A stretch of DNA of 56,493 nt from Candidatus Aenigmatarchaeota archaeon (GTDB lineage: Archaea; Aenigmatarchaeota; Aenigmatarchaeia; CG10238-14; SCSR01), in the NCBI GenBank assembly GCA_038998585.1, contig JAVZGQ010000005.1, positions 1 through 56,493 of the forward strand. Reading direction: 5' to 3'. Made by a program: the position numbers and the translations under genes. The notes beneath the pieces are model-generated. The model saw only the letters and a program-made list of their open reading frames with translations. It ran no database searches and was not told the DNA's origin. Shown piece after piece: positions 1 through 12,545 of this stretch. The first letter of the stretch is position 1; the number at the start of each line of letters is the position of its first letter.

Positions 1-3000
1 AATAGTCAAATTAGCAATTCTATAGCTTCCTGCTTCACAATTCCAACTAAACGTTCTATTTTCTCCAGGTAACAATTCTAATGGTAAAGATTCTAAGGGT
101 GAATCTGCTGTCTTAACTTTGTAAACTATAAATTTGTTTGATATTAAAGTATCATTTCCAGCATTGCTCGAATTAGCGAAAACAGTCACATTAGCTTCTC
201 CATAACTAGTAGCATTAACTTGCCACCAAACCTTCTTGTATTCACCAACTGAGATACTTCCCAAATTCCTCGTTGGTTCATCAACTTGCCAACCAGAAGG
301 AACAGTTATCGTAACATTAACATCATTTGCTGTATCTACCCATGTTGCAACAGTTGCATTTATAGTAAAGTTTCTATAGATAAAAACTTCTTTTGGTTTC
401 AAGATTTCATATACATCTAATTGAGGAGCACAACCTGGCAATTGAATTTTTATTGTAAAGTTCTCAGAAGCATTTGGCTTATAATTTGGTTCAGAGGAAT
501 TTATTTCAGCTGCCCAAAGTTGAGGACCTTCGTACCATCCAGAGCAAGTTGTAACATTAAACAAAAATCTTGCATAACCTTCATCATCTGTATAGTTGTT
601 TCCTATTATTTTATAACCATTTGGATAGCTTGAATGATAAAGTTTGAAAGTAACAGTTGCAGAAGGATTTGTTACATTGTAAGTTTGCCTATCAAAATCA
701 TATACCCTTACAGAAAGCCATTGAGGTTGTGTATCTTTAATAACTGTGGTATCATTTCCCTCTCCGCCATAGCTCACGTTCACATCATCTTTTTCCACAG
801 TTACAGACAAAACTTGGTAAGTTTCTGCTCCATCCATCTTGAATTGATAGTACCAAACTCCTTGTTGATTTGCTGAAAAGTTCCTATACCAATATTTAAT
901 TGAATTAATGCAGTTAGCACATTCAGTAGGAGTTTGGTTTAAGCAAGTTGGTACATCACATTTAAAAATTGGTGGCCAAGCAGTATGCATATATAGACTA
1001 ATGTTTAAAACATTTTCACTATCACCAGAAGAAGCTTTTACTGAAAAGTTCCAGTTTGGATATCCCCATCCTTCTGTTGTTGGAATTGCAGTAGGCTCTT
1101 CTAATTTCTTGACAGGATATAAGTAGAATAGTCCTGGAGTTCCTAGATTAGCAGTGCTATTATCGTAGTGATAGCTTCTATTTACAAACATACTCGCATT
1201 ATACCATCCCATTGGTGTTGTAATATCAGTTTGCCAATCGCATGTATAGGCATTAGCTCCTACTTGGCTTACTGGAGAGCATTCATAGCTTTGCTCACTT
1301 TTATTTGCAAAGTACCTTACTGTTGTTGTTAAAGGATCACCGCAATCGTCAGTAGTAGCCCCCAAGAAAGGAACTTTTTGTTCTTGTGTATAATTAGTTG
1401 AACCATCTGGCTTCTGGAAGCTTAATGTTATGTCTCCCATTATGGTTAGATTGAGGCCTGTAATCGAAGCCGAACCGTAGCACTCACTCGCCCCTTCTGC
1501 AACTTCAATTTTCCATCTTTGATCTCCTACTTTATATTTCGGGGAGCAACCCGGATTAAAGTAAAAAACGGAATAACCTGAAGCATTAGTGAGGTTTCCG
1601 TAAACTGGTCCTGGAACTCCAGGTTCAAGTTCAATTGAAAAGTTGACCATTAGGTTTGGAACTAGGGTTCCATTTAAGTCACGAACCCTTACAGCGAGCA
1701 AATCAACCTGGTCACCACGTCTATTTGCAATGGAATTATTACCCACTATATCCTCAAGCAAGATAGTATCTTGTTGGATTGCGAATGGGTGAGAAGGGGT
1801 TTCATTTACATTCCCAGAGCTATCAACAACCCTAAACTTATAGTGAGCTGGTCCTATATATGAGCAAGTAAAATTGGTTATGTCTGTAAAGTTTATTTGG
1901 GTCCATGCTGAACAAGCTGTACAATTTTTCTTCATAATTTCTACAAATCCGGCACCAGCATCAACTAATAAGCTTATATTTAGGTCATCTCCTTCATCAT
2001 CTCTCACCTCAACTGTGAAATTCCATGTTTCACCCCAACCATAGCTTGCTCCTTCTGTCACACCCATCACAGTTTCATTAGCATACTTTGGAGGCCAGTT
2101 CACGTTTATTGTGACATTATAATTACTTGATTTGTTGTAACCATAGCAAATTGAAGCTGCCGTATCGACATAGCCCCACCATTGTCTTTTTCCAGAGGTA
2201 AAATCTGCATCTGGTAAGAAATAAAAGTATACATAGCCTGTTGCATTGGTTGTATTATAACCAACAGTTTTGTTTGCACCTTCCCAAGAAGTCATTGTAA
2301 CATTAAACTTTGTTTGAAGGGTTTGTGAGATATCATAATTTCCTTTGTCTATGTCATAGGCTCTAAGTACAAATTCAGCAGGGCTTGCTGGTGTTGCAGT
2401 AGTTTCATTTCCAGAAACATACTCTAATATAATTTTATCCGGGTCAATCACATGATAATCATTCCCACTTGTAGTGTTAGATGTACCTAAATTGTCAGTC
2501 GCATTAAATTTGAAGAACCAAGTTCCTATGTCATTACAAGTGAAATTCACACTTTTGGTAAACCATAGAACTGTGTTACTGCAATCGGTACATGTTTTCC
2601 AGTCTTGAAATTCCCAGTTTCCACCAGCCTTTTTAAGCCAGAATGAAACGTTTACAGTTTCTCCAGAAGCGTCGCTTACAGCTATAGTATAGTTGTAAAA
2701 TTTACCCCAGCCACCTGAGGAAGGAGTAACAGTTGGGTTGTTTAGCTGAGGAGTTGTAACCAACTTGAAAGCATTAATAATTTTTATCGAATTATTGTAG
2801 AAATAACCTTTACTAGCATTCATAGTTATGTTATAGTAACCAGCCACTCCTACACTAGAATCCCAGCCGCAGCTGTAGTTTCCAGGATATCCTGGTACAT
2901 CTGTTCCAGAGCAGTAATAAATATTTTCACCATTTTCTAGGGTAAAGTTAACTATAGCACCACTTTCACCAGAACCACAGTCATTCTTTACATATCCTTT

Positions 3001-6000
3001 TATCGTTATTGTTTGCCCCCAATTAAAATCCTGACCATTCAAAGGTTGAGTTAATTCTGGATCTAGAGCTCCGTAAATGATTACTGTCATGTTTTCTGAT
3101 GTATTTGAATAATAGCATGAAGATGTTCCAGTGGCATACACATACCAAAGCTGTGGACCAACTTGATACCCAGCACTACACATTGAGCTAAGTGTATATG
3201 CTAGATGCCCAGTAGAGTTTGTGTTACCCATGGGATAAGAACTAAATGTACTACCGCTTTTTTGTATGTATAAGGTACCAGAAACTTCACCCTCCCCGAC
3301 ATTTGTATTTCTTATGCTATCATAAACTATTTGTGATAATTCTATTGAATCAGTTCTATTTACCACACTGTTATTTACTGTCGCATTTTTAAGCAATATA
3401 GTGTCGTTTAATGGAATAAAGTATATGTTTGGATAATTATTCCATGTATCATCCTTATTGCCTGGAGCCGTAGTAACATTTAGTTTATAGTATTTTGCTG
3501 CAGCAATTGCTCCAAGTCCACCTCCAAGGGAGCCCCCACTACAAGTAAAAGTTTGAGTAAAATTTACAAGTTGCCCTGGAGTTGAATTAACAACAACAGA
3601 ATAATTTCTTGATTGTTGGAATAGAAATGGCTCTCCAGCGATTGCAGATATCCATAGGCTTACATTCTCTGGAACATTTGTTTCATTGTAGGGATCCCAG
3701 AGTTCTGCAGAAAAATTAAAGACCGACCCCCATCCAGCAGTATAGCCACTCTGAGTGTTATTGATTTTTGGATTTTCTAGCTTTGGATTAACATCCTGCC
3801 AACACCATCTGTATTGTATTGAAGAAACTACAGAACTACCTCTCTTCGGTCCTTGTATAGAACCATAGTATGGGCCATTTGATGTGAATCCACCTATATC
3901 AGAAATTGATAGGCTGCATGTGTTAGGTGAACTAATGGTACCGTTATTGTTAGCACCACAGGTCCAAAATGGGCCAAGTGGCGCGTTGACAACTAAATAG
4001 CTAGCTGGGTAATATGCATACGCAGTCGTATTTGTTAAATTAAAATATCCCCATTCGTTTGAAGTTGATGTAGTACTTGTGTAGAAAAATACTGTTATAT
4101 TTTGAATATAACAATTTAGTGTACCAGGGCAATCTATAGGATCCCATGAAATGGGGCAGTTTACTGAACTTCCTGTTGTACCAGTACAACTAAAAGATAC
4201 CGAATCTGTAAACCATTGGCATATGTATAATGGATCAACAACAAGCATCCAACTTCTAGCTTCTTTGAAAGTCTTAACATGTTGTCCTACTTTATATTCA
4301 ACTTCTGCCGGGCCAAGCATGTACAAGCGCGGCCAAGCAAATGGAGGTAAAGCAGAATAAAATACTATGGAGTTATTTGACAAATTTTCCCATGTTAAAA
4401 CTTTTGAATTGTTTTCTATTTCTAATTTTGCACCTCCTGTATTTGTAACAGTAAAATCAACTGGCAAAAATTCTCTAAATGTGATGTTTTCTGCTTTGGT
4501 ATAAGAAATGATTTTTATAGATGAAGTGAAAGGTCCTCCATTCGGATCGGTGGTAATTGGTGTATCCCTTAATATGTCAAATTCATAAAAATTTTTGACC
4601 AGAAAGTATGAAGCAATCTCTGCCCTAACCTCATTTTCACAACAACCTGTAGTAGCAGTAGCAAATAGTGTATAGTTACCGGGTACTGTAGTTTCATATG
4701 AAGCAGTGTATACACCTTTAGATATCTCAGATATAGAGCCATCATTTGTAGCGAATATAGAGACTTTATTGTCAGGGGCTGTAACTACCAGAGTTACGTC
4801 CGCACCAGAAACCAAATGACCTTCACTATTTAAAACAACCATTAATATCTCAGCAGTTTCTCTAGGATGATAAATTGACTTTTTTGTGTTTATTGAAATT
4901 AGTCCAACGGCGAAAGTTGTTTCTTCTTCAACAATAACTTCCCCAGGATTTGGGCTTATATAACTTAACCTTAATTTAAGCTTATGCACACCAGGCCTAA
5001 ACTCCCTTTCTGTATCCAATTCAACCCAATACTTTCCTTTTTCAATTTCATCTTCAGTAAAATTAACTTCACTAACATTTCCTTCAGGATCTACAACAAA
5101 AACTTTTATTGTAGCATTTGAATAAAGCTCTTTAGTATCTTCATCTAAAACTAAAATTTCAAACTTTATTTTTTCCCCTAACCCATAATTGAATTTTTCT
5201 TGCTTAATTTTTGGTTTAAGTTTCAAGTGTTTTAAGATATCAAAGCCCAAAGTTTTGTTTATATTTCCAAATTTAGTTTCAGCAAAAATTTCTGCAGTGT
5301 AAGTTCCAGAGATTTTGGGCAATAACTCAAAATTAAACAAAAATTTGCCATCGGTTAATATGTTATCTTGAAATACAGTTTTCCCTTTAGGATCTTTTAT
5401 TACAATAGAAACATTTGAGCTTATTATGCTTTCATTTAAACTAACATTTCCAGACACTTTAACAAATTTCCATGTCTTATTTCCCTTAGTAACATTTTCT
5501 ACAGAAACAAAAGCATCTATGACTAGAGTAACATTCGGTCGAGTAGTTTCTAAACATTCGACAGAAACATCAAAGCTCTTGAAATCCTTGCTTTCATTTG
5601 TTTCTGCAGTAACGTTTAAAGTGTATTTTCCACATTCACTTGCTTTTAATAGCCAAGATATCATCGAGCTTTCATTCTTTCCGATCTGGGCTATAGTTTT
5701 TTGCAGGCCTTCGGCTGCAAATTCTTGTGGGGCTTGCAAGCTAACAAAAACATCAGAGGAATTTCCATTCAGTGAAGTAATAAAAGCTTTTACTTCAAAT
5801 TCTTCAGAAACATTCACAGAAGAAGGAGCTTCTGTTCTTTCTATACTGATTTCAGGTTTTGGTTGAATATTCCCCGGGGCGCTAAAATTTAAGGTATAAT
5901 AAAAGCTTGTAGAATTTCCGAAATTTCCGGAAGAAACTTTAACAGAATATTCTCCCTCTTCATAAAAATCAGCGACAAGATAATTAGAATAGACCCCATC

Positions 6001-7527
6001 GATTGCATTTAGTATTGTGGAATAAATTGAACTATTATTGAATTCTATGCTTAAGTTAATTTCTCCATTTCTACTTCCATTTACCAAAAACTCTCCAAGA
6101 ATGTTTATAGTTTCACTTTGGGTATAGTTTTTCTTGTCGGTAAAGACTGTAAGATAAATGATATTTTCTTCTTCAAAAACTTCCAAGTTTCCTTCTTTAG
6201 TCTCGATCCAATTTCCAGCTAAGTCAGAAGCATAAAACTTAAAAGCTATACTTCCAGCCGAATTTACAGTTTTAGTAACATTACTCCAAGCTTCCAAAAC
6301 ATTAAGGTTAGAAGACCAAACAGCTTTTCCAAATTTCTTGACTAGGATAATATGGTTAGGAACAGTTATATCATAAATCTTACCTTTGTAGTTCTCTAGA
6401 CTTATTTGCTTGACATAAATTGGCTTAAGATTTTCATCAAGAAAAGTTATACCATAACCAGCTTTAGCTAGCTCATAAGCTTTTTCCACTTCAATGAACT
6501 TAAATTCTTTTAGATCCACACCAAACAACAAATCTCTAGCCCTTTTCACAAAGTCCAAAGGATAGTTAATTCTCGCAAAAACTTTATGCTTAGGTGTTAC
6601 ATAGATGTCAATTCCCCCGTTTATCTTATAAATTCCATCATCGTAAGGAAGCTCAACTATCCTCAAGGGCCTCTCCCATTTTATATTACTTTCAGAAAGA
6701 GTAGCGACTTCATCTTCATAGTTCAAATCCTTAAAATACTTCCACCCTTGTCTTGTTAAAACTTTTGTTTCGTTATCGTAACTTGAAACAAAAATATGGC
6801 TTTCATTCTCCCAAGAGCCAGAAGAATTCCAGCTGAAGATCCATTCATCCAAGCCAAAATCATCTTGCCAAAAAGCAAAAAATTCCACTTCTTCCCCAAC
6901 TTTTGCTTTCTCTTTACTTGCTCCAAAGAAAGAATAAGAGGGAGTCATTAAATCCTCTAGAGATGTTGAATTGTCGATATCGACTGTATTATTTTCTTCA
7001 TCAGCTAGAGACATGACAGCTGTTGTTGATGTTGTTGTGGTAGACTCGACAATTTCTTCATTCAAAGGCAAAGGAGCGGTTATTGTCGAAAAAGTAACAT
7101 TTCCGTCAGTTTCTGAGCCCGAGCTCTCATTATCTTCTTCAGAACTCATCGTAAATCGGCCAGAAATATCTTTTAAATTGCTTATATTGGAAATATTAAA
7201 GAAGTTTGATAAATTCTGGGCCACTATACTTGCTTGGAAGAGAAGGAGAAAAGCTATTGTAAGGATTGCTATAATCTTTAAACCCTTTTCACCTTTATCT
7301 GAAAGCAAGGGTTTTCTTTCTTGAGTCGACTCTTTTCTCAAGTAACAAAGTTTTGCCGATCCAACTTTTCTTTCGAGAATATCCCCTTTTTTAACCAATT
7401 CCTTAACATATTTTGCAGATGTATGTCTATGTAAGCCAGAAAGTTTTGCTACAGAACTAATAGTAAGGCCTTCCGGATGCTTTCTAAGCATTGATATAAT
7501 TTTCTCTAGAGAATCTTCAGCTCCCAT
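1..7527 (-). CDS. Giant membrane-anchored surface protein (>=2509 aa, 3' end outside window): N-terminal winged HTH, TM helix, S/T-rich linker, Hint domain, repeated beta-sandwich/Ig-like modules
   Basis: Hand translation from ATG at 7527: MGAEDSLEKIISMLRKHPEGLTISSVAKLSGLHRHTSAKYVKELVKKGDILERKVGSAKLCYL (wHTH), then IIAILTIAFLLLFQASIVA (TM). Open where checked (7527-6181 and 120-1); no competing long minus-strand ORF in the track, consistent with no stop before the window edge. Rich in NxS/T sequons and Cys pairs. Confidence 0.88.
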   Translation of the reverse strand, partial: MGAEDSLEKIISMLRKHPEGLTISSVAKLSGLHRHTSAKYVKELVKKGDILERKVGSAKLCYLRKESTQERKPLLSDKGEKGLKIIAILTIAFLLLFQASIVAQNLSNFFNISNISNLKDISGRFTMSSEEDNESSGSETDGNVTFSTITAPLPLNEEIVESTTTTSTTAVMSLADEENNTVDIDNSTSLEDLMTPSYSFFGASKEKAKVGEEVEFFAFWQDDFGLDEWIFSWNSSGSWENESHIFVSSYDNETKVLTRQGWKYFKDLNYEDEVATLSESNIKWERPLRIVELPYDDGIYKINGGIDIYVTPKHKVFARINYPLDFVKRARDLLFGVDLKEFKFIEVEKAYELAKAGYGITFLDENLKPIYVKQISLENYKGKIYDITVPNHIILVKKFGKAVWSSNLNVLEAWSNVTKTVNSAGSIAFKFYASDLAGNWIETKEGNLEVFEEENIIYLTVFTDKKNYTQSETINILGEFLVNGSRNGEINLSIEFNNSSIYSTILNAIDGVYSNYLVADFYEEGEYSVKVSSGNFGNSTSFYYTLNFSAPGNIQPKPEISIERTEAPSSVNVSEEFEVKAFITSLNGNSSDVFVSLQAPQEFAAEGLQKTIAQIGKNESSMISWLLKASECGKYTLNVTAETNESKDFKSFDVSVECLETTRPNVTLVIDAFVSVENVTKGNKTWKFVKVSGNVSLNESIISSNVSIVIKDPKGKTVFQDNILTDGKFLFNFELLPKISGTYTAEIFAETKFGNINKTLGFDILKHLKLKPKIKQEKFNYGLGEKIKFEILVLDEDTKELYSNATIKVFVVDPEGNVSEVNFTEDEIEKGKYWVELDTEREFRPGVHKLKLRLSYISPNPGEVIVEEETTFAVGLISINTKKSIYHPRETAEILMVVLNSEGHLVSGADVTLVVTAPDNKVSIFATNDGSISEISKGVYTASYETTVPGNYTLFATATTGCCENEVRAEIASYFLVKNFYEFDILRDTPITTDPNGGPFTSSIKIISYTKAENITFREFLPVDFTVTNTGGAKLEIENNSKVLTWENLSNNSIVFYSALPPFAWPRLYMLGPAEVEYKVGQHVKTFKEARSWMLVVDPLYICQWFTDSVSFSCTGTTGSSVNCPISWDPIDCPGTLNCYIQNITVFFYTSTTSTSNEWGYFNLTNTTAYAYYPASYLVVNAPLGPFWTCGANNNGTISSPNTCSLSISDIGGFTSNGPYYGSIQGPKRGSSVVSSIQYRWCWQDVNPKLENPKINNTQSGYTAGWGSVFNFSAELWDPYNETNVPENVSLWISAIAGEPFLFQQSRNYSVVVNSTPGQLVNFTQTFTCSGGSLGGGLGAIAAAKYYKLNVTTAPGNKDDTWNNYPNIYFIPLNDTILLKNATVNNSVVNRTDSIELSQIVYDSIRNTNVGEGEVSGTLYIQKSGSTFSSYPMGNTNSTGHLAYTLSSMCSAGYQVGPQLWYVYATGTSSCYYSNTSENMTVIIYGALDPELTQPLNGQDFNWGQTITIKGYVKNDCGSGESGAIVNFTLENGENIYYCSGTDVPGYPGNYSCGWDSSVGVAGYYNITMNASKGYFYNNSIKIINAFKLVTTPQLNNPTVTPSSGGWGKFYNYTIAVSDASGETVNVSFWLKKAGGNWEFQDWKTCTDCSNTVLWFTKSVNFTCNDIGTWFFKFNATDNLGTSNTTSGNDYHVIDPDKIILEYVSGNETTATPASPAEFVLRAYDIDKGNYDISQTLQTKFNVTMTSWEGANKTVGYNTTNATGYVYFYFLPDADFTSGKRQWWGYVDTAASICYGYNKSSNYNVTINVNWPPKYANETVMGVTEGASYGWGETWNFTVEVRDDEGDDLNISLLVDAGAGFVEIMKKNCTACSAWTQINFTDITNFTCSYIGPAHYKFRVVDSSGNVNETPSHPFAIQQDTILLEDIVGNNSIANRRGDQVDLLAVRVRDLNGTLVPNLMVNFSIELEPGVPGPVYGNLTNASGYSVFYFNPGCSPKYKVGDQRWKIEVAEGASECYGSASITGLNLTIMGDITLSFQKPDGSTNYTQEQKVPFLGATTDDCGDPLTTTVRYFANKSEQSYECSPVSQVGANAYTCDWQTDITTPMGWYNASMFVNRSYHYDNSTANLGTPGLFYLYPVKKLEEPTAIPTTEGWGYPNWNFSVKASSGDSENVLNISLYMHTAWPPIFKCDVPTCLNQTPTECANCINSIKYWYRNFSANQQGVWYYQFKMDGAETYQVLSVTVEKDDVNVSYGGEGNDTTVIKDTQPQWLSVRVYDFDRQTYNVTNPSATVTFKLYHSSYPNGYKIIGNNYTDDEGYARFLFNVTTCSGWYEGPQLWAAEINSSEPNYKPNASENFTIKIQLPGCAPQLDVYEILKPKEVFIYRNFTINATVATWVDTANDVNVTITVPSGWQVDEPTRNLGSISVGEYKKVWWQVNATSYGEANVTVFANSSNAGNDTLISNKFIVYKVKTADSPLESLPLELLPGENRTFSWNCEAGSYRIANLTI
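6307..6783 (-). other. Hint (mini-intein/BIL-like) domain, 159 aa, inside the giant protein
   Basis: Block A SYDNETKVLTRQGWKYFKDL, block B VTPKHKVF, block F YKGKIYDITVPNHII, block G KAVWSSN. No endonuclease. The +1 residue is Leu. Confidence 0.85.
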
Positions 7528-7530
7528 CTC

Positions 7531-7548
7531 TTGTACACCAGTGTACAA
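7531..7548. promoter_or_regulatory. Perfect 8-bp inverted repeat, candidate operator
   Basis: TTGTACAC-CA-GTGTACAA, 3 nt upstream of the giant-gene ATG, overlapping its GGTG SD-like sequence, between two divergent wHTH-encoding genes. Confidence 0.5.
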
Positions 7549-7677
7549 CATAGAAAATGTTTGTCGAATCCCATATTCCATTATAAATCTTCGGAGAATC
7601 TCTCTCCCGACACTTCTTTTTTCTGGATTTTAAAAGAAACTCAAATCTTTTATATTGTCGAAACCAAAAAATATTAT

Positions 7678-8076
7678 GTGAACATATCAATTCTTAAGCC
7701 AAAAAATAATAATGATGTACAGCTGGAAGAGCTTTTGAGACAAATGGATACTCAGAGAGCCCAAATGGCAATAGAGCTCGAGAAATTGAGAAATTTAGGG
7801 ATGAAAATCCAGGAAATCGAAAATAGATTAAAGGAGATAGAGAGATTAATTTCTGTGGGCGGCTTTAGACTTAAAGCAAACCCTGTAAGCTCAAAAACAA
7901 AAGAAGCAATAAAAATGATTCTTCAGAAATACGGTGAGCTAACACCTCTCCAGCTCAGCAGACTTATCAAACTGTCGAGAACTAGGTGTAATGAATATCT
8001 TAAGGAAATGGAGCGTGAAGGCATCGCAACTTCGAGGATAGAGAGTCGAAAAAAATACTACAAGCTTCGACAATAG
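7678..8076 (+). CDS. Coiled-coil plus C-terminal winged-HTH DNA-binding protein
   Basis: Heptad region followed by KEAIKMILQKYGELTPLQLSRLIKLSRTRCNEYLKEMEREG...RKKYYKL. Start uncertain (GTG 7678 chosen). Confidence 0.75.
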   Translation: MNISILKPKNNNDVQLEELLRQMDTQRAQMAIELEKLRNLGMKIQEIENRLKEIERLISVGGFRLKANPVSSKTKEAIKMILQKYGELTPLQLSRLIKLSRTRCNEYLKEMEREGIATSRIESRKKYYKLRQ

Positions 8077-8115
8077 CTAAAAATTACATCGACTTTTGTC
8101 GGATTTTTATATCGA

Positions 8116-8664
8116 CTAAATAAATCTTCCCAATAAAATTAAAGATAAAATTCCAAATAGGTGTAAAAAATAGGTGAAATATAAGAATTTCTTTGTTTCA
8201 AATTCGGCCATTCCAAATAAAACTGTGGCAATTTCGTCTGGCAAAGGGGAGGCTATGATAAAACCAGCTATAACAGGAACTATTTTTTTAAATTTCCCAG
8301 ATCGTCTAATTTCTTTTAATTTTATCCCACTCTTGTCCGTAAGATCGTCTATTTCTTTTACTAAATGATTTTTGATAAACCTGAATATGAGATAATCACC
8401 AATAACTGCTCCAAAAGCCCCTAAAATCGAAGCAATAAAAGGATTAATGGTGTTAGAAATGAAGATGAAGACACTAGCTGCTAATGGTGCCGTTAAACCA
8501 TAAGGGAAAAAAATTCCGGCAAAAAAAGCTCCAAAATAGCCCAATTCACTTAAATAGCTTTTAAGTGTTTCTCTAACAAAAGCATTGGTCAAGCTGAAAA
8601 TTGCTATGAAAGTACTTAGTCCTAAAAAAAATAAGTACTTATATTTATACTTAAATTTCATCAT
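8116..8664 (-). CDS. DedA/VTT-like membrane protein
   Basis: Hydrophobic, with GAVIGDYLIFRF and SPLPDE motifs. Confidence 0.65.
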   Translation of the reverse strand: MMKFKYKYKYLFFLGLSTFIAIFSLTNAFVRETLKSYLSELGYFGAFFAGIFFPYGLTAPLAASVFIFISNTINPFIASILGAFGAVIGDYLIFRFIKNHLVKEIDDLTDKSGIKLKEIRRSGKFKKIVPVIAGFIIASPLPDEIATVLFGMAEFETKKFLYFTYFLHLFGILSLILLGRFI

Positions 8665-12035: not shown

Positions 12036-12545
12036 TTATATTCTTTTTTCATATCTAAGCCAAAGGGCCCAAGAAGCCAATACAGCAAAGATCAAGCCAA
12101 ATTTCCATAGAAAATCATGGATAAGTTCAAAAAAATTCGGATCAATTAAAGAGATGTAGATTGTTAAAACAATTCTTGCTATGTTAAAAAAGAAAATTGA
12201 AGGCAGGGTTATAATAAGAAAAAATAATTTTTTCTTAAGTTTAATGGATGGGGTTGCCATTACTAGAGAAAAAAGAGTATAAAGGGATTTCCAACCCGTA
12301 CAGTCCATATCCATTTCAATGAAGTATATATTGAAATTATTAACTGCTTTTAAGATTTGGCCGTCTAAACTTGTTTTTACACCAAGAGTTAACAAAAGCT
12401 TGTAAGAAAGAAAAGTTACAAAATCTTGTAGAGGTCTGTAAGAGAAATTAAAGTATAGCAATATGTAGAGAGGTACAGCAAGCAAATTGAACTTAAATAA
12501 AAACCACAAAACTTGTAAAAGTTTTCCTTTAGTTTTCTTATTCAT
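12036..12545 (-). CDS. Exosortase/archaeosortase family membrane protein
   Basis: Multi-TM with catalytic-type Cys (DCTGW), Arg (NIARI) and His (IHD). Confidence 0.8.
   Translation of the reverse strand: MNKKTKGKLLQVLWFLFKFNLLAVPLYILLYFNFSYRPLQDFVTFLSYKLLLTLGVKTSLDGQILKAVNNFNIYFIEMDMDCTGWKSLYTLFSLVMATPSIKLKKKLFFLIITLPSIFFFNIARIVLTIYISLIDPNFFELIHDFLWKFGLIFAVLASWALWLRYEKRI

Follow-up and report, generated by a model that had tools for sequence, protein, structure and literature searches.

The window analysed here, the 56,493-nt contig JAVZGQ010000005.1 (all of contig C5) from a Candidatus Aenigmatarchaeota archaeon genome (G000; 574 kb, 88% complete), begins with a giant surface-protein gene whose product carries a winged helix-turn-helix (wHTH) at its N-terminus, and which lies beside a palindrome and a divergent gene for a second, coiled-coil wHTH. 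On the minus strand, the giant's frame is open from 7581 to 1, with no stop before the contig end. An earlier note on this DNA had described one continuous frame running from a wHTH through one transmembrane (TM) helix into a sequon-rich ectodomain, and our reading of the open reading frames (ORFs) agrees, the missing stop codon explaining why the gene is absent from the ORF track. Contigs from all three sequencing runs compared list no indel that would separate the parts by a frameshift, and one of them, from a run that is possibly the source sample, covers 6665-7441 (wHTH to residue 305, at the start of the Hint domain described below) with 0 differences; no RNA data set is listed as containing the locus. 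Residue numbers follow the ATG-7581 frame throughout.

The gene almost certainly starts at ATG 7527, not ATG 7581, because several relatives carry in-frame stops just upstream and because a TATA-like box kept in 30 loci falls on the downstream side of ATG 7581, at 7577-7573. A coding N-terminal extension from ATG 7581 was rejected, the conservation there being at the DNA level, over the boxes. By comparison with relatives, the open frame would make up only the front sixth of the full protein. No continuation was found on another G000 contig, the distal parts of relatives' giants matching only C5; a 5′-open 1,195-aa repeat-protein fragment at C3:82982-86566, considered as a continuation, is unrelated to the giant. 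In the same-genus genome G007, the region matching the start of contig C9 sits ~11 kb beyond the point where the giant stops, and the coiled-coil and 1,962-aa genes that lie between have no match in G000; therefore, an assembly gap of ~45 kb apparently separates C5 from C9.

The N-terminal wHTH of about 63 residues is borne out by Pfam HTH matches (residues 23-84), by an AlphaFold model with three helices and a beta-wing (pLDDT 91-94), and by Foldseek, whose matches are wHTH proteins. Its ratio of nonsynonymous to synonymous substitution rates (dN/dS) is 0.20 in six close genomes, and the domain is therefore under purifying selection. The fusion to the giant is genuine and conserved, in that the same fusion heads complete giants of relatives: the genomes G061 and G062 carry the wHTH-TM-giant architecture, for which a search in DPANN archaea had been suggested, in single frames of 14,236 and 14,526 aa, respectively. 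For comparison we collected 78 GTDB loci, comprising 36 fusions of a wHTH to a leader (one, the truncated L095, assigned to this class by hand), 30 stand-alone wHTHs, and 12 excluded loci (8 Methanospirillum long fusions, 2 weak bacterial matches and 2 partial matches). Two of the underlying collections of loci overlap, and the counts of the two are not additive. Cluster representatives at 50% identity were also compared.

The palindrome just upstream of the start codon had been called perfect; it reads TTGTACAC-CA-GTGTACAA, with 8-bp arms and a 2-bp non-palindromic CA spacer. As the genome holds 31 such 8-2-8 repeats, the symmetry by itself is not beyond chance, and the significance of the palindrome lies instead in its conservation across loci. 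Specifically, TTGTAC-N6-GTACAA with at most one mismatch (operator A) occurs upstream of 29 of the 36 wHTH-leader fusions, compared with 0.3% of shuffles. The motif co-varies with the recognition helix, being found at 29/34 fused and 3/5 stand-alone loci whose helix reads HRHT and at 0/27 loci with other helices, and among 16 distinct sites the inner positions change in complementary pairs (16/16, 11/16 and 13/16). The wHTH very probably binds the palindrome, a prediction made because motif and recognition helix co-vary. Stand-alone relatives with SRLT or SRIT helices often have a TGTTAAACA-like motif upstream instead, as judged by eye.

Operator A is single in G000, where it scores 27.9 and the next best site, at 12.6, falls under every training site; genome-wide scoring revealed no regulon beyond the gene's own start. 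In five relatives, extra sites number 1–4 per genome, which is the control level (1–5 sites). The combined pattern of operator and TCGAC boxes, the second motif of the locus, occurs once each in 15 of 151 genomes of the phylum, in four families, compared with one control match.

The divergent coiled-coil-wHTH gene is present beside the giant gene, as the earlier note had it, and most likely starts at GTG 7678 rather than at 7531. TCGAC boxes, like operator A, are placed just downstream of TATA-like boxes; at least two of them occur at 36/36 fused and 0/30 stand-alone loci, and the divergent coiled-coil-wHTH occurs at 33/36 fused and 0/30 stand-alone loci. Loci L055-L058 lack the fused wHTH and the operator, yet retain the coiled-coil-wHTH and at least three TCGAC boxes, while L119, L122 and L123 possess a stand-alone HRHT wHTH and the operator and have no coiled-coil-wHTH and fewer than two TCGAC boxes. 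Two regulators with two motifs are suggested by this distribution, in which the operator goes with the HRHT wHTH and TCGAC with the divergent one; although the counts are inflated by kinship and by the HRHT bias of the search, the dissociation is seen in both directions. A site just downstream of the TATA box is a repressor position in archaeal regulators. A sigma-70 promoter scan of the region is uninformative for archaea. Further TCGAC-like boxes cluster at 8067-8117, at the 3′ end of the divergent gene.

The single TM helix that the earlier note placed after the wHTH corresponds to one strongly hydrophobic segment, residues 101-121, which aligns with the ordinary N-terminal leader of wHTH-less orthologs. 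It looks like a cleavable leader, with a predicted prepilin-type site at its inner end and a predicted signal-peptidase-type site at its outer end, and the involvement of proteolysis, offered earlier as a possibility, is likely. The outer end is Ala121 in 34/36 fusions, and position 100 is Gly or Ser in 29/36. Among 66 cluster representatives with an HRHT helix, 47 have [GAS]Q[AVILMT] at the helix start, compared with a mean of 4.4 and a maximum of 11 in shuffles and with 1/47 in a control window upstream, and in 37/39 this motif stands 20–22 residues before the terminal Ala, the same register as G100 and A121. The features of a class III site, a charged residue at −2, Gly or Ala at −1 and a hydrophobic helix after, are found in the window at K99-G100/L101; family-wide, the sites combine a small residue with Gln, Leu, Ile or Phe. 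The +2 Lys of the window lies outside the FlaFind residue set, and the complete FlaFind pattern is fitted by 19/66 relatives.

Among the proteases of the genome are a prepilin peptidase at C6:21248, a signal peptidase I at C6:38212 (found by TIGR02228 and missed by Pfam PF00717), site-2 proteases, a rhomboid and, with a profile match below cut-off, a protein like signal peptide peptidase; pilin-type proteins with KG/Q or KA/Q sites are encoded as well. By eye, the −3 residue in leaders of its own secreted proteins and of partner giants, which are encoded by separate genes, is Val, Ala or Ser. The leaders of the partner giants share a G-Q-S-[QE]-L motif before the helix, which suggests a lineage-specific leader type.

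The giant is one of several ectodomains to which the wHTH-leader unit is joined. Eighteen of the fusions are short (238–395 aa), consisting of the wHTH, the helix and a ~200-aa stalk plus immunoglobulin-like (Ig) domain, and 16 of these 18 directly precede an ORF with its own leader, 9 such ORFs exceeding 1,600 aa within the available DNA. The fusion is found in 73 of the 148 listed representatives, mostly in this short form, which is the commonest and is encoded separately from the giant; the same wHTH family also heads unrelated ectodomains. Short and giant-fused forms interleave on the tree, in which 11 of 40 inner branches are open, and three distinct wHTH-less loci (L055/L056/G050, L057 and L058) retain a leader-stalk-Ig gene and a giant. 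The conserved unit is the wHTH-leader junction, old and widespread, and its join to the giant is labile. G000 itself holds a second copy of the module at C1:2-3191, in which a coiled-coil-wHTH gene and a stand-alone wHTH gene diverge and the stop codon of the latter adjoins the gene for a large secreted protein; L042 and L043 have this wHTH and secreted protein in fused form. Two further small wHTH genes, C9:860-1066 and C9:3631-3849, lie beside surface-protein genes.

Beyond the stalk, an Ig-like domain is interrupted by a Hint domain (residues 267-425) that is absent from the earlier note. Its Pfam match (E 2e-7) is below cut-off; its structural model has a pLDDT of 81, and the best Foldseek matches are structures of bacterial intein-like (BIL) domains and inteins. 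Both flanks of the Hint are modelled as beta strands. Ser1, Thr-x-x-His, Asp, His, the penultimate Ser, the terminal Asn and the +1 Leu are invariant in 10/10 aligned sequences, and the dN/dS of the Hint is the lowest of the N-terminal region (0.08, compared with 0.20 for the wHTH and 0.38 for the stalk, in the six close genomes). In place of the +1 Cys, Ser or Thr of canonical class 1 inteins, there is Leu, which recurs in P0003, P0012, P0013, P0014, L052 and L067. Because of this Leu, under residue rules stated in the available part of PMC4031507, the Hint would be unable to form the normal branched intermediate; it probably cannot splice canonically, and self-cleavage is the likely outcome. 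The Hint fold, N-terminal nucleophile, terminal Asn and lack of a +1 nucleophile are traits of type A BILs, while the C-terminal pair is an invariant Ser-Asn rather than the His-Asn of BILs, and we do not file the domain as a BIL. The Hint is independent of the wHTH, occurring in 8/36 fusions, in P0012, which has no wHTH, and in P0003, a short protein without a giant; conversely, the wHTH-fused giants of G062, L089, L094 and L096 have no Hint.

The ectodomain is as rich in sequons as the earlier note had it, with 113 after the helix compared with 36 ± 5 in 500 shuffles (maximum 56); residues 19-100 contain none. About 2,400 aa of it lie in the window, with MG2 and Big matches, and the relatives reach 11,435–14,526 aa. 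Residues 1266-1825 and 1826-2400 are 27% identical (E 1e-42) in a pairwise comparison of halves; self-BLAST of the ectodomain, unlike this comparison, shows no repeat. The G061 frame, which includes the Hint, is 39% identical to residues 844-2527. At their C-termini, the G061 and G062 proteins have a hydrophobic segment, then an ATPase of the P-loop type, whose Walker A and B motifs are intact, and a coiled coil, and this arrangement of a TM segment, a VirB4/HerA-type ATPase and a coiled coil recurs in G007:C1 and G050; the window's own C-terminus lies outside the assembly. The ATPase matches DUF87 over cut-off, has HerA (4d2i) as its best solved relative and is related to HerA, CedD and TraD; ten relatives have it at 85–94% identity, among them G007, in which it closes a 5′-open 13,242-aa frame homologous to the window's repeats. 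The G007 pieces C4 (wHTH and Hint) and C1 (13,242 aa and ATPase) have no overlap, and we infer their union only. The G050 giant has the ATPase and no wHTH. No ortholog of the ATPase was found in the G000 assembly, where the best match (E 1e-6) is a different 507-aa ORF. In G007 (L154:732-9962), L138, L140 and L155, the giant is followed by a coiled-coil gene; a MinD/ParA-like ATPase gene is next in the G007 and G050 operons, and a second large surface protein is found in G007 and G062. In the window, an exosortase/archaeosortase-family gene lies at 12036-12545, 4 kb from the locus, and L034 has a similar gene order. The features of the locus are listed in Table 1.

Table 1. Features of the giant surface-protein locus, in window coordinates.
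Feature	Position	Strand	Basis
Giant surface glycoprotein gene, first 2,509 codons, cut by contig end	1..7527	-	Frame; relatives of 11,435–14,526 aa
Cys/Trp/Asn-rich long repeats (~560-aa duplication), Ig-like Pfam hints	1..3786	-	
MG2 (Ig-like) domain, over Pfam cut-off	4660..4887	-	
C-terminal half of split Ig-like domain	6172..6306	-	Uninterrupted domain in P0025
Hint/BIL-like domain S267-N425 (Thr329, His332, Asp404, His410; penultimate Ser; +1 = Leu426)	6307..6783	-	
N-terminal half of Ig-like domain split by Hint	6784..6954	-	Uninterrupted domain in P0025
Ser/Thr/Glu-rich glycosylated stalk, residues 122-209	6955..7218	-	Sequence
Leader helix, residues 99-121; predicted prepilin-type site K99-G100/L101, predicted signal-peptidase-type site A121/Q122	7219..7287	-	
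Winged HTH, residues 23-84, recognition helix HRHTSAKY	7330..7515	-	Pfam HTH matches, AlphaFold, Foldseek
Operator A, TTGTAC-N6-GTACAA, where the fused wHTH is predicted to bind; 3 bp upstream of the start codon	7531..7548	.	Motif comparison
TCGAC box shortly after the TATA-like box of the giant gene; predicted to be bound by the divergent coiled-coil-wHTH	7563..7567	-	
TATA-like box of giant gene	7573..7577	-	Conservation across 30 loci
Middle TCGAC box, with one mismatch in the window and none in close relatives	7607..7611	+	
TATA-like TTTTATAT then GTCGA box before divergent gene (putative promoter)	7648..7661	+	
Divergent coiled-coil-wHTH gene, 132 aa from GTG	7678..8076	+	Pfam, comparison with relatives

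We propose, with about an even chance of being right, that the wHTH acts as an autorepressor that forms part of the leader and is released as the protein is exported, which would put a very costly operon under negative feedback. Specifically, the wHTH would bind TTGTAC-N6-GTACAA; this site follows the TATA box and coincides with the predicted transcription start or comes shortly after it, and binding there would repress. The leader would be processed constitutively: prepilin peptidase would most likely cut between G100 and L101 on the cytoplasmic face, freeing a soluble wHTH, and/or signal peptidase I would cut between A121 and Q122. The divergent coiled-coil-wHTH would add another level of control by binding the TCGAC boxes that follow the two TATA boxes, and the Hint would cleave itself, parting the stalk from the fibre, as relatives do with two genes. 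One wHTH would be produced with every copy of the operon's first product, so that one repressor would be set free per fibre, and synthesis of a fibre of ~1.5 MDa would be rationed, the operon's main gene, at ~42 kb, taking up ~7% of such a genome.

Several observations weigh against this proposal. We infer repression by the wHTH only from the position of the operator, and no good operator is found at 5/34 fused and 2/5 stand-alone HRHT loci. The prepilin site is off-consensus here, with Lys at +2; among the 66 HRHT representatives, K/R at −2 together with Q at +1 occurs in only 23, 13 match neither prepilin-type pattern, and about half of the family lacks the basic −2 residue. The signal-peptidase site has Ile at −3 in 29/36 fusions and so is possibly left uncut. 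In locus L049 (genome G001), an ortholog from the same genus, the recognition helix of the wHTH is deleted in frame and the operator has one extra mismatch. The presence of the ATPase on the C5 giant would follow from homology with relatives. Furthermore, the loci are related and were gathered with HRHT-biased patterns, so that counts over them overstate independence.

A more elaborate account, possible and distinctly doubtful, makes the wHTH the leader peptide of a megadalton fibre for host attachment and motor function, in which release by prepilin peptidase at membrane insertion would count fibres, and in which, in this lineage, the first Ig domain would have become a pre-cut latch through a captured intein, with fibre assembly or host pull feeding back on the operon.

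It is unlikely that the wHTH is instead an uncleaved tethered repressor in the manner of ToxR/CadC, with the helix as a permanent anchor and the fibre parted by the Hint cut or by the relatives' stop codon. The −3 Ile (29/36) and the +2 Lys that trouble the two cleavage sites would suit such an anchor, and the short form, at 238–395 aa and without a second anchor, has the topology of the transmembrane transcription regulators described in the available text of PMC10269533. However, small residues are kept at both ends of the helix in a fixed register, and the four fused giants that have no Hint would be pinned at both ends.

The contact sensor favoured by the earlier note, linking host attachment to transcription, can be put in a form in which the Hint cuts, the split Ig halves stay latched, and a pull on the fibre parts them, which allows proteases in the membrane to cleave the wHTH stub, after the manner of RsgI/SEAL; we hold this form, too, to be improbable. 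In its favour, the Hint occupies a loop within an Ig-like domain (whose homolog P0025 is uninterrupted) and is strongly conserved, genes for a site-2 protease and a rhomboid are present, and RsgI/SEAL offers a precedent (available text of bioRxiv 10.1101/2023.06.27.546760). Against it, the Hint is in only 8/36 fusions and also occurs apart from the wHTH or the giant. Against a host-attachment sensor in general, the only recognisable operator in the genome is at the gene's own start, leaving no regulon, and relatives' extra sites are at control level; in addition, the wHTH-leader is joined to unrelated ectodomains, its commonest form being a stalk-and-Ig gene separate from the giant, and the wHTH is lost in some orthologous giants.

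Less probable still is an incidental fusion, in which a small autorepressor gene lost its stop codon before a surface-protein gene and the coupling to export has no function. The stand-alone wHTH genes of G000 at C1:2095-2364 and C9:3631-3849 abut surface-protein genes, a pair of the C1 type occurs fused, short and giant-fused forms interleave, and the wHTH is lost in L049 and L055-L058, all of which would be expected of such an accident; against it, the wHTH-leader junction is old and widespread (73/148 representatives, 36/78 loci). A DNA tether, the other role raised in the earlier note, by which the wHTH would pin a chromosomal locus at the fibre base or attachment site, for example to feed a HerA/VirB4-type ATPase, is very improbable: relatives do end in an ATPase related to HerA, CedD and TraD and have a MinD/ParA-like gene next in the operon, but the single site overlaps the promoter and 5′ leader, as a regulator's would, the G050 giant has the ATPase without the wHTH, and, as full-length relatives possess a C-terminal anchor and a cytoplasmic ATPase as well, the fibre has a cytoplasmic end besides the wHTH.

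The overall design of the giant is already published. The SPEARE proteins of nanohaloarchaea are giant, Ig-rich DPANN proteins with a C-terminal TM segment and a VirB4/TraG-like ATPase (Hamm 2019, PMC6642349; Reva 2023, PMC10266531, as far as their available text goes), and the former lists similar intracellular parts for Aenigmarchaeota. Like SPEARE, the full-length relatives described here have a leader, a very long Ig-rich ectodomain, a C-terminal TM segment, a cytoplasmic ATPase and a terminal coiled coil, and they reach 14,526 aa, compared with the 9,409 aa given for SPEARE in that text. An N-terminal wHTH, an operator pair and a Hint domain, by comparison, are not mentioned in the available text of the two papers: HTH, intein and Hint have 0 matches in that of Reva 2023, and helix-turn-helix has 0 in the main text of Hamm 2019. 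The laminin-G domain, a feature in Hamm 2019, has no Pfam LamG match in the window, G061 or G007:C1; because of this, and because no nanohaloarchaeal name appears among the listed homologs of the ATPase, we call the giant SPEARE-like and not a SPEARE member. Among proteins of up to 2,000 aa, the ATPase has 940 homologs, and the 120 of them that are listed are mostly labelled Aenigm-, Woese-, Micr- or Nanoarchaeota, none being named nanohaloarchaeal.

What is new here is the regulatory logic, with its operator pair, and the reading of the helix as a cleavable leader; literature searches, whose scope did not extend to supplements, returned nothing on either, nor on the regulation of SPEARE-like giants. 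Regulators of the ToxR/CadC type share a DNA-binding domain, one hydrophobic helix and an extracytoplasmic part with the protein described here (PMC10269533, available text), whereas here the helix looks cleavable, a structural fibre makes up the outer part, and no target was found besides the gene's own promoter. Archaeal class III signal peptides, in the available text of PMC3824201 and PMC10117864, likewise have a basic residue and Gly before the hydrophobic helix and are cut on the cytoplasmic side (MNKKG/LTV is an example to compare with K99-G100/L101), whereas the n-region here would be ~80 aa long and contain a folded wHTH, with Lys at +2 and no Gly at +3. The likeness to RsgI/SEAL, which self-cleave near the membrane within a beta-sheet domain upstream of a long ectodomain (bioRxiv 10.1101/2023.06.27.546760, available text), is by description and analogy only; here a Hint domain would do the cutting, and the output would be a wHTH instead of an anti-sigma factor.

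Among candidates for the means by which DPANN archaea grip and exploit their hosts, SPEARE-like giants are in the lead. If the autorepressor proposal is true, a repressor within a cleavable signal peptide would be an unusual coupling of export to transcription. The locus offers two small expressible regulators, predicted operators and defined cleavage sites, testable without culture by using proteins of 60–130 aa and oligonucleotides.

The C5 Hint resembles type A BIL domains (available text of PMC4031507; structures 6y75 and 2lwy) in its fold, N-terminal nucleophile, block B Thr/His, F4 Asp, F13 His, terminal Asn and lack of a +1 nucleophile, and differs from them in being archaeal, in its Ser1, in a penultimate Ser for His, and in being inserted into a loop of an Ig domain outside the cell. 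By sequence, it is closest to the canonical-looking inteins of P0016, P0017 and P0022, with Cys at the start and Asn followed by Thr or Ser at the end. The Hint domains of P0003 (residues ~245-500), P0014 and P0017 have in-frame inserts that resemble small genes in antisense orientation, and a portion of the one in P0003 is 72% identical to an antisense frame in L057; the inserts are possibly genes nested inside inteins. P0017 is itself a surface protein, in which the canonical-looking intein lies beside a laminin-G domain and an apparently duplicated HTH tail follows a C-terminal hydrophobic segment, a mirror image of the architecture described here.

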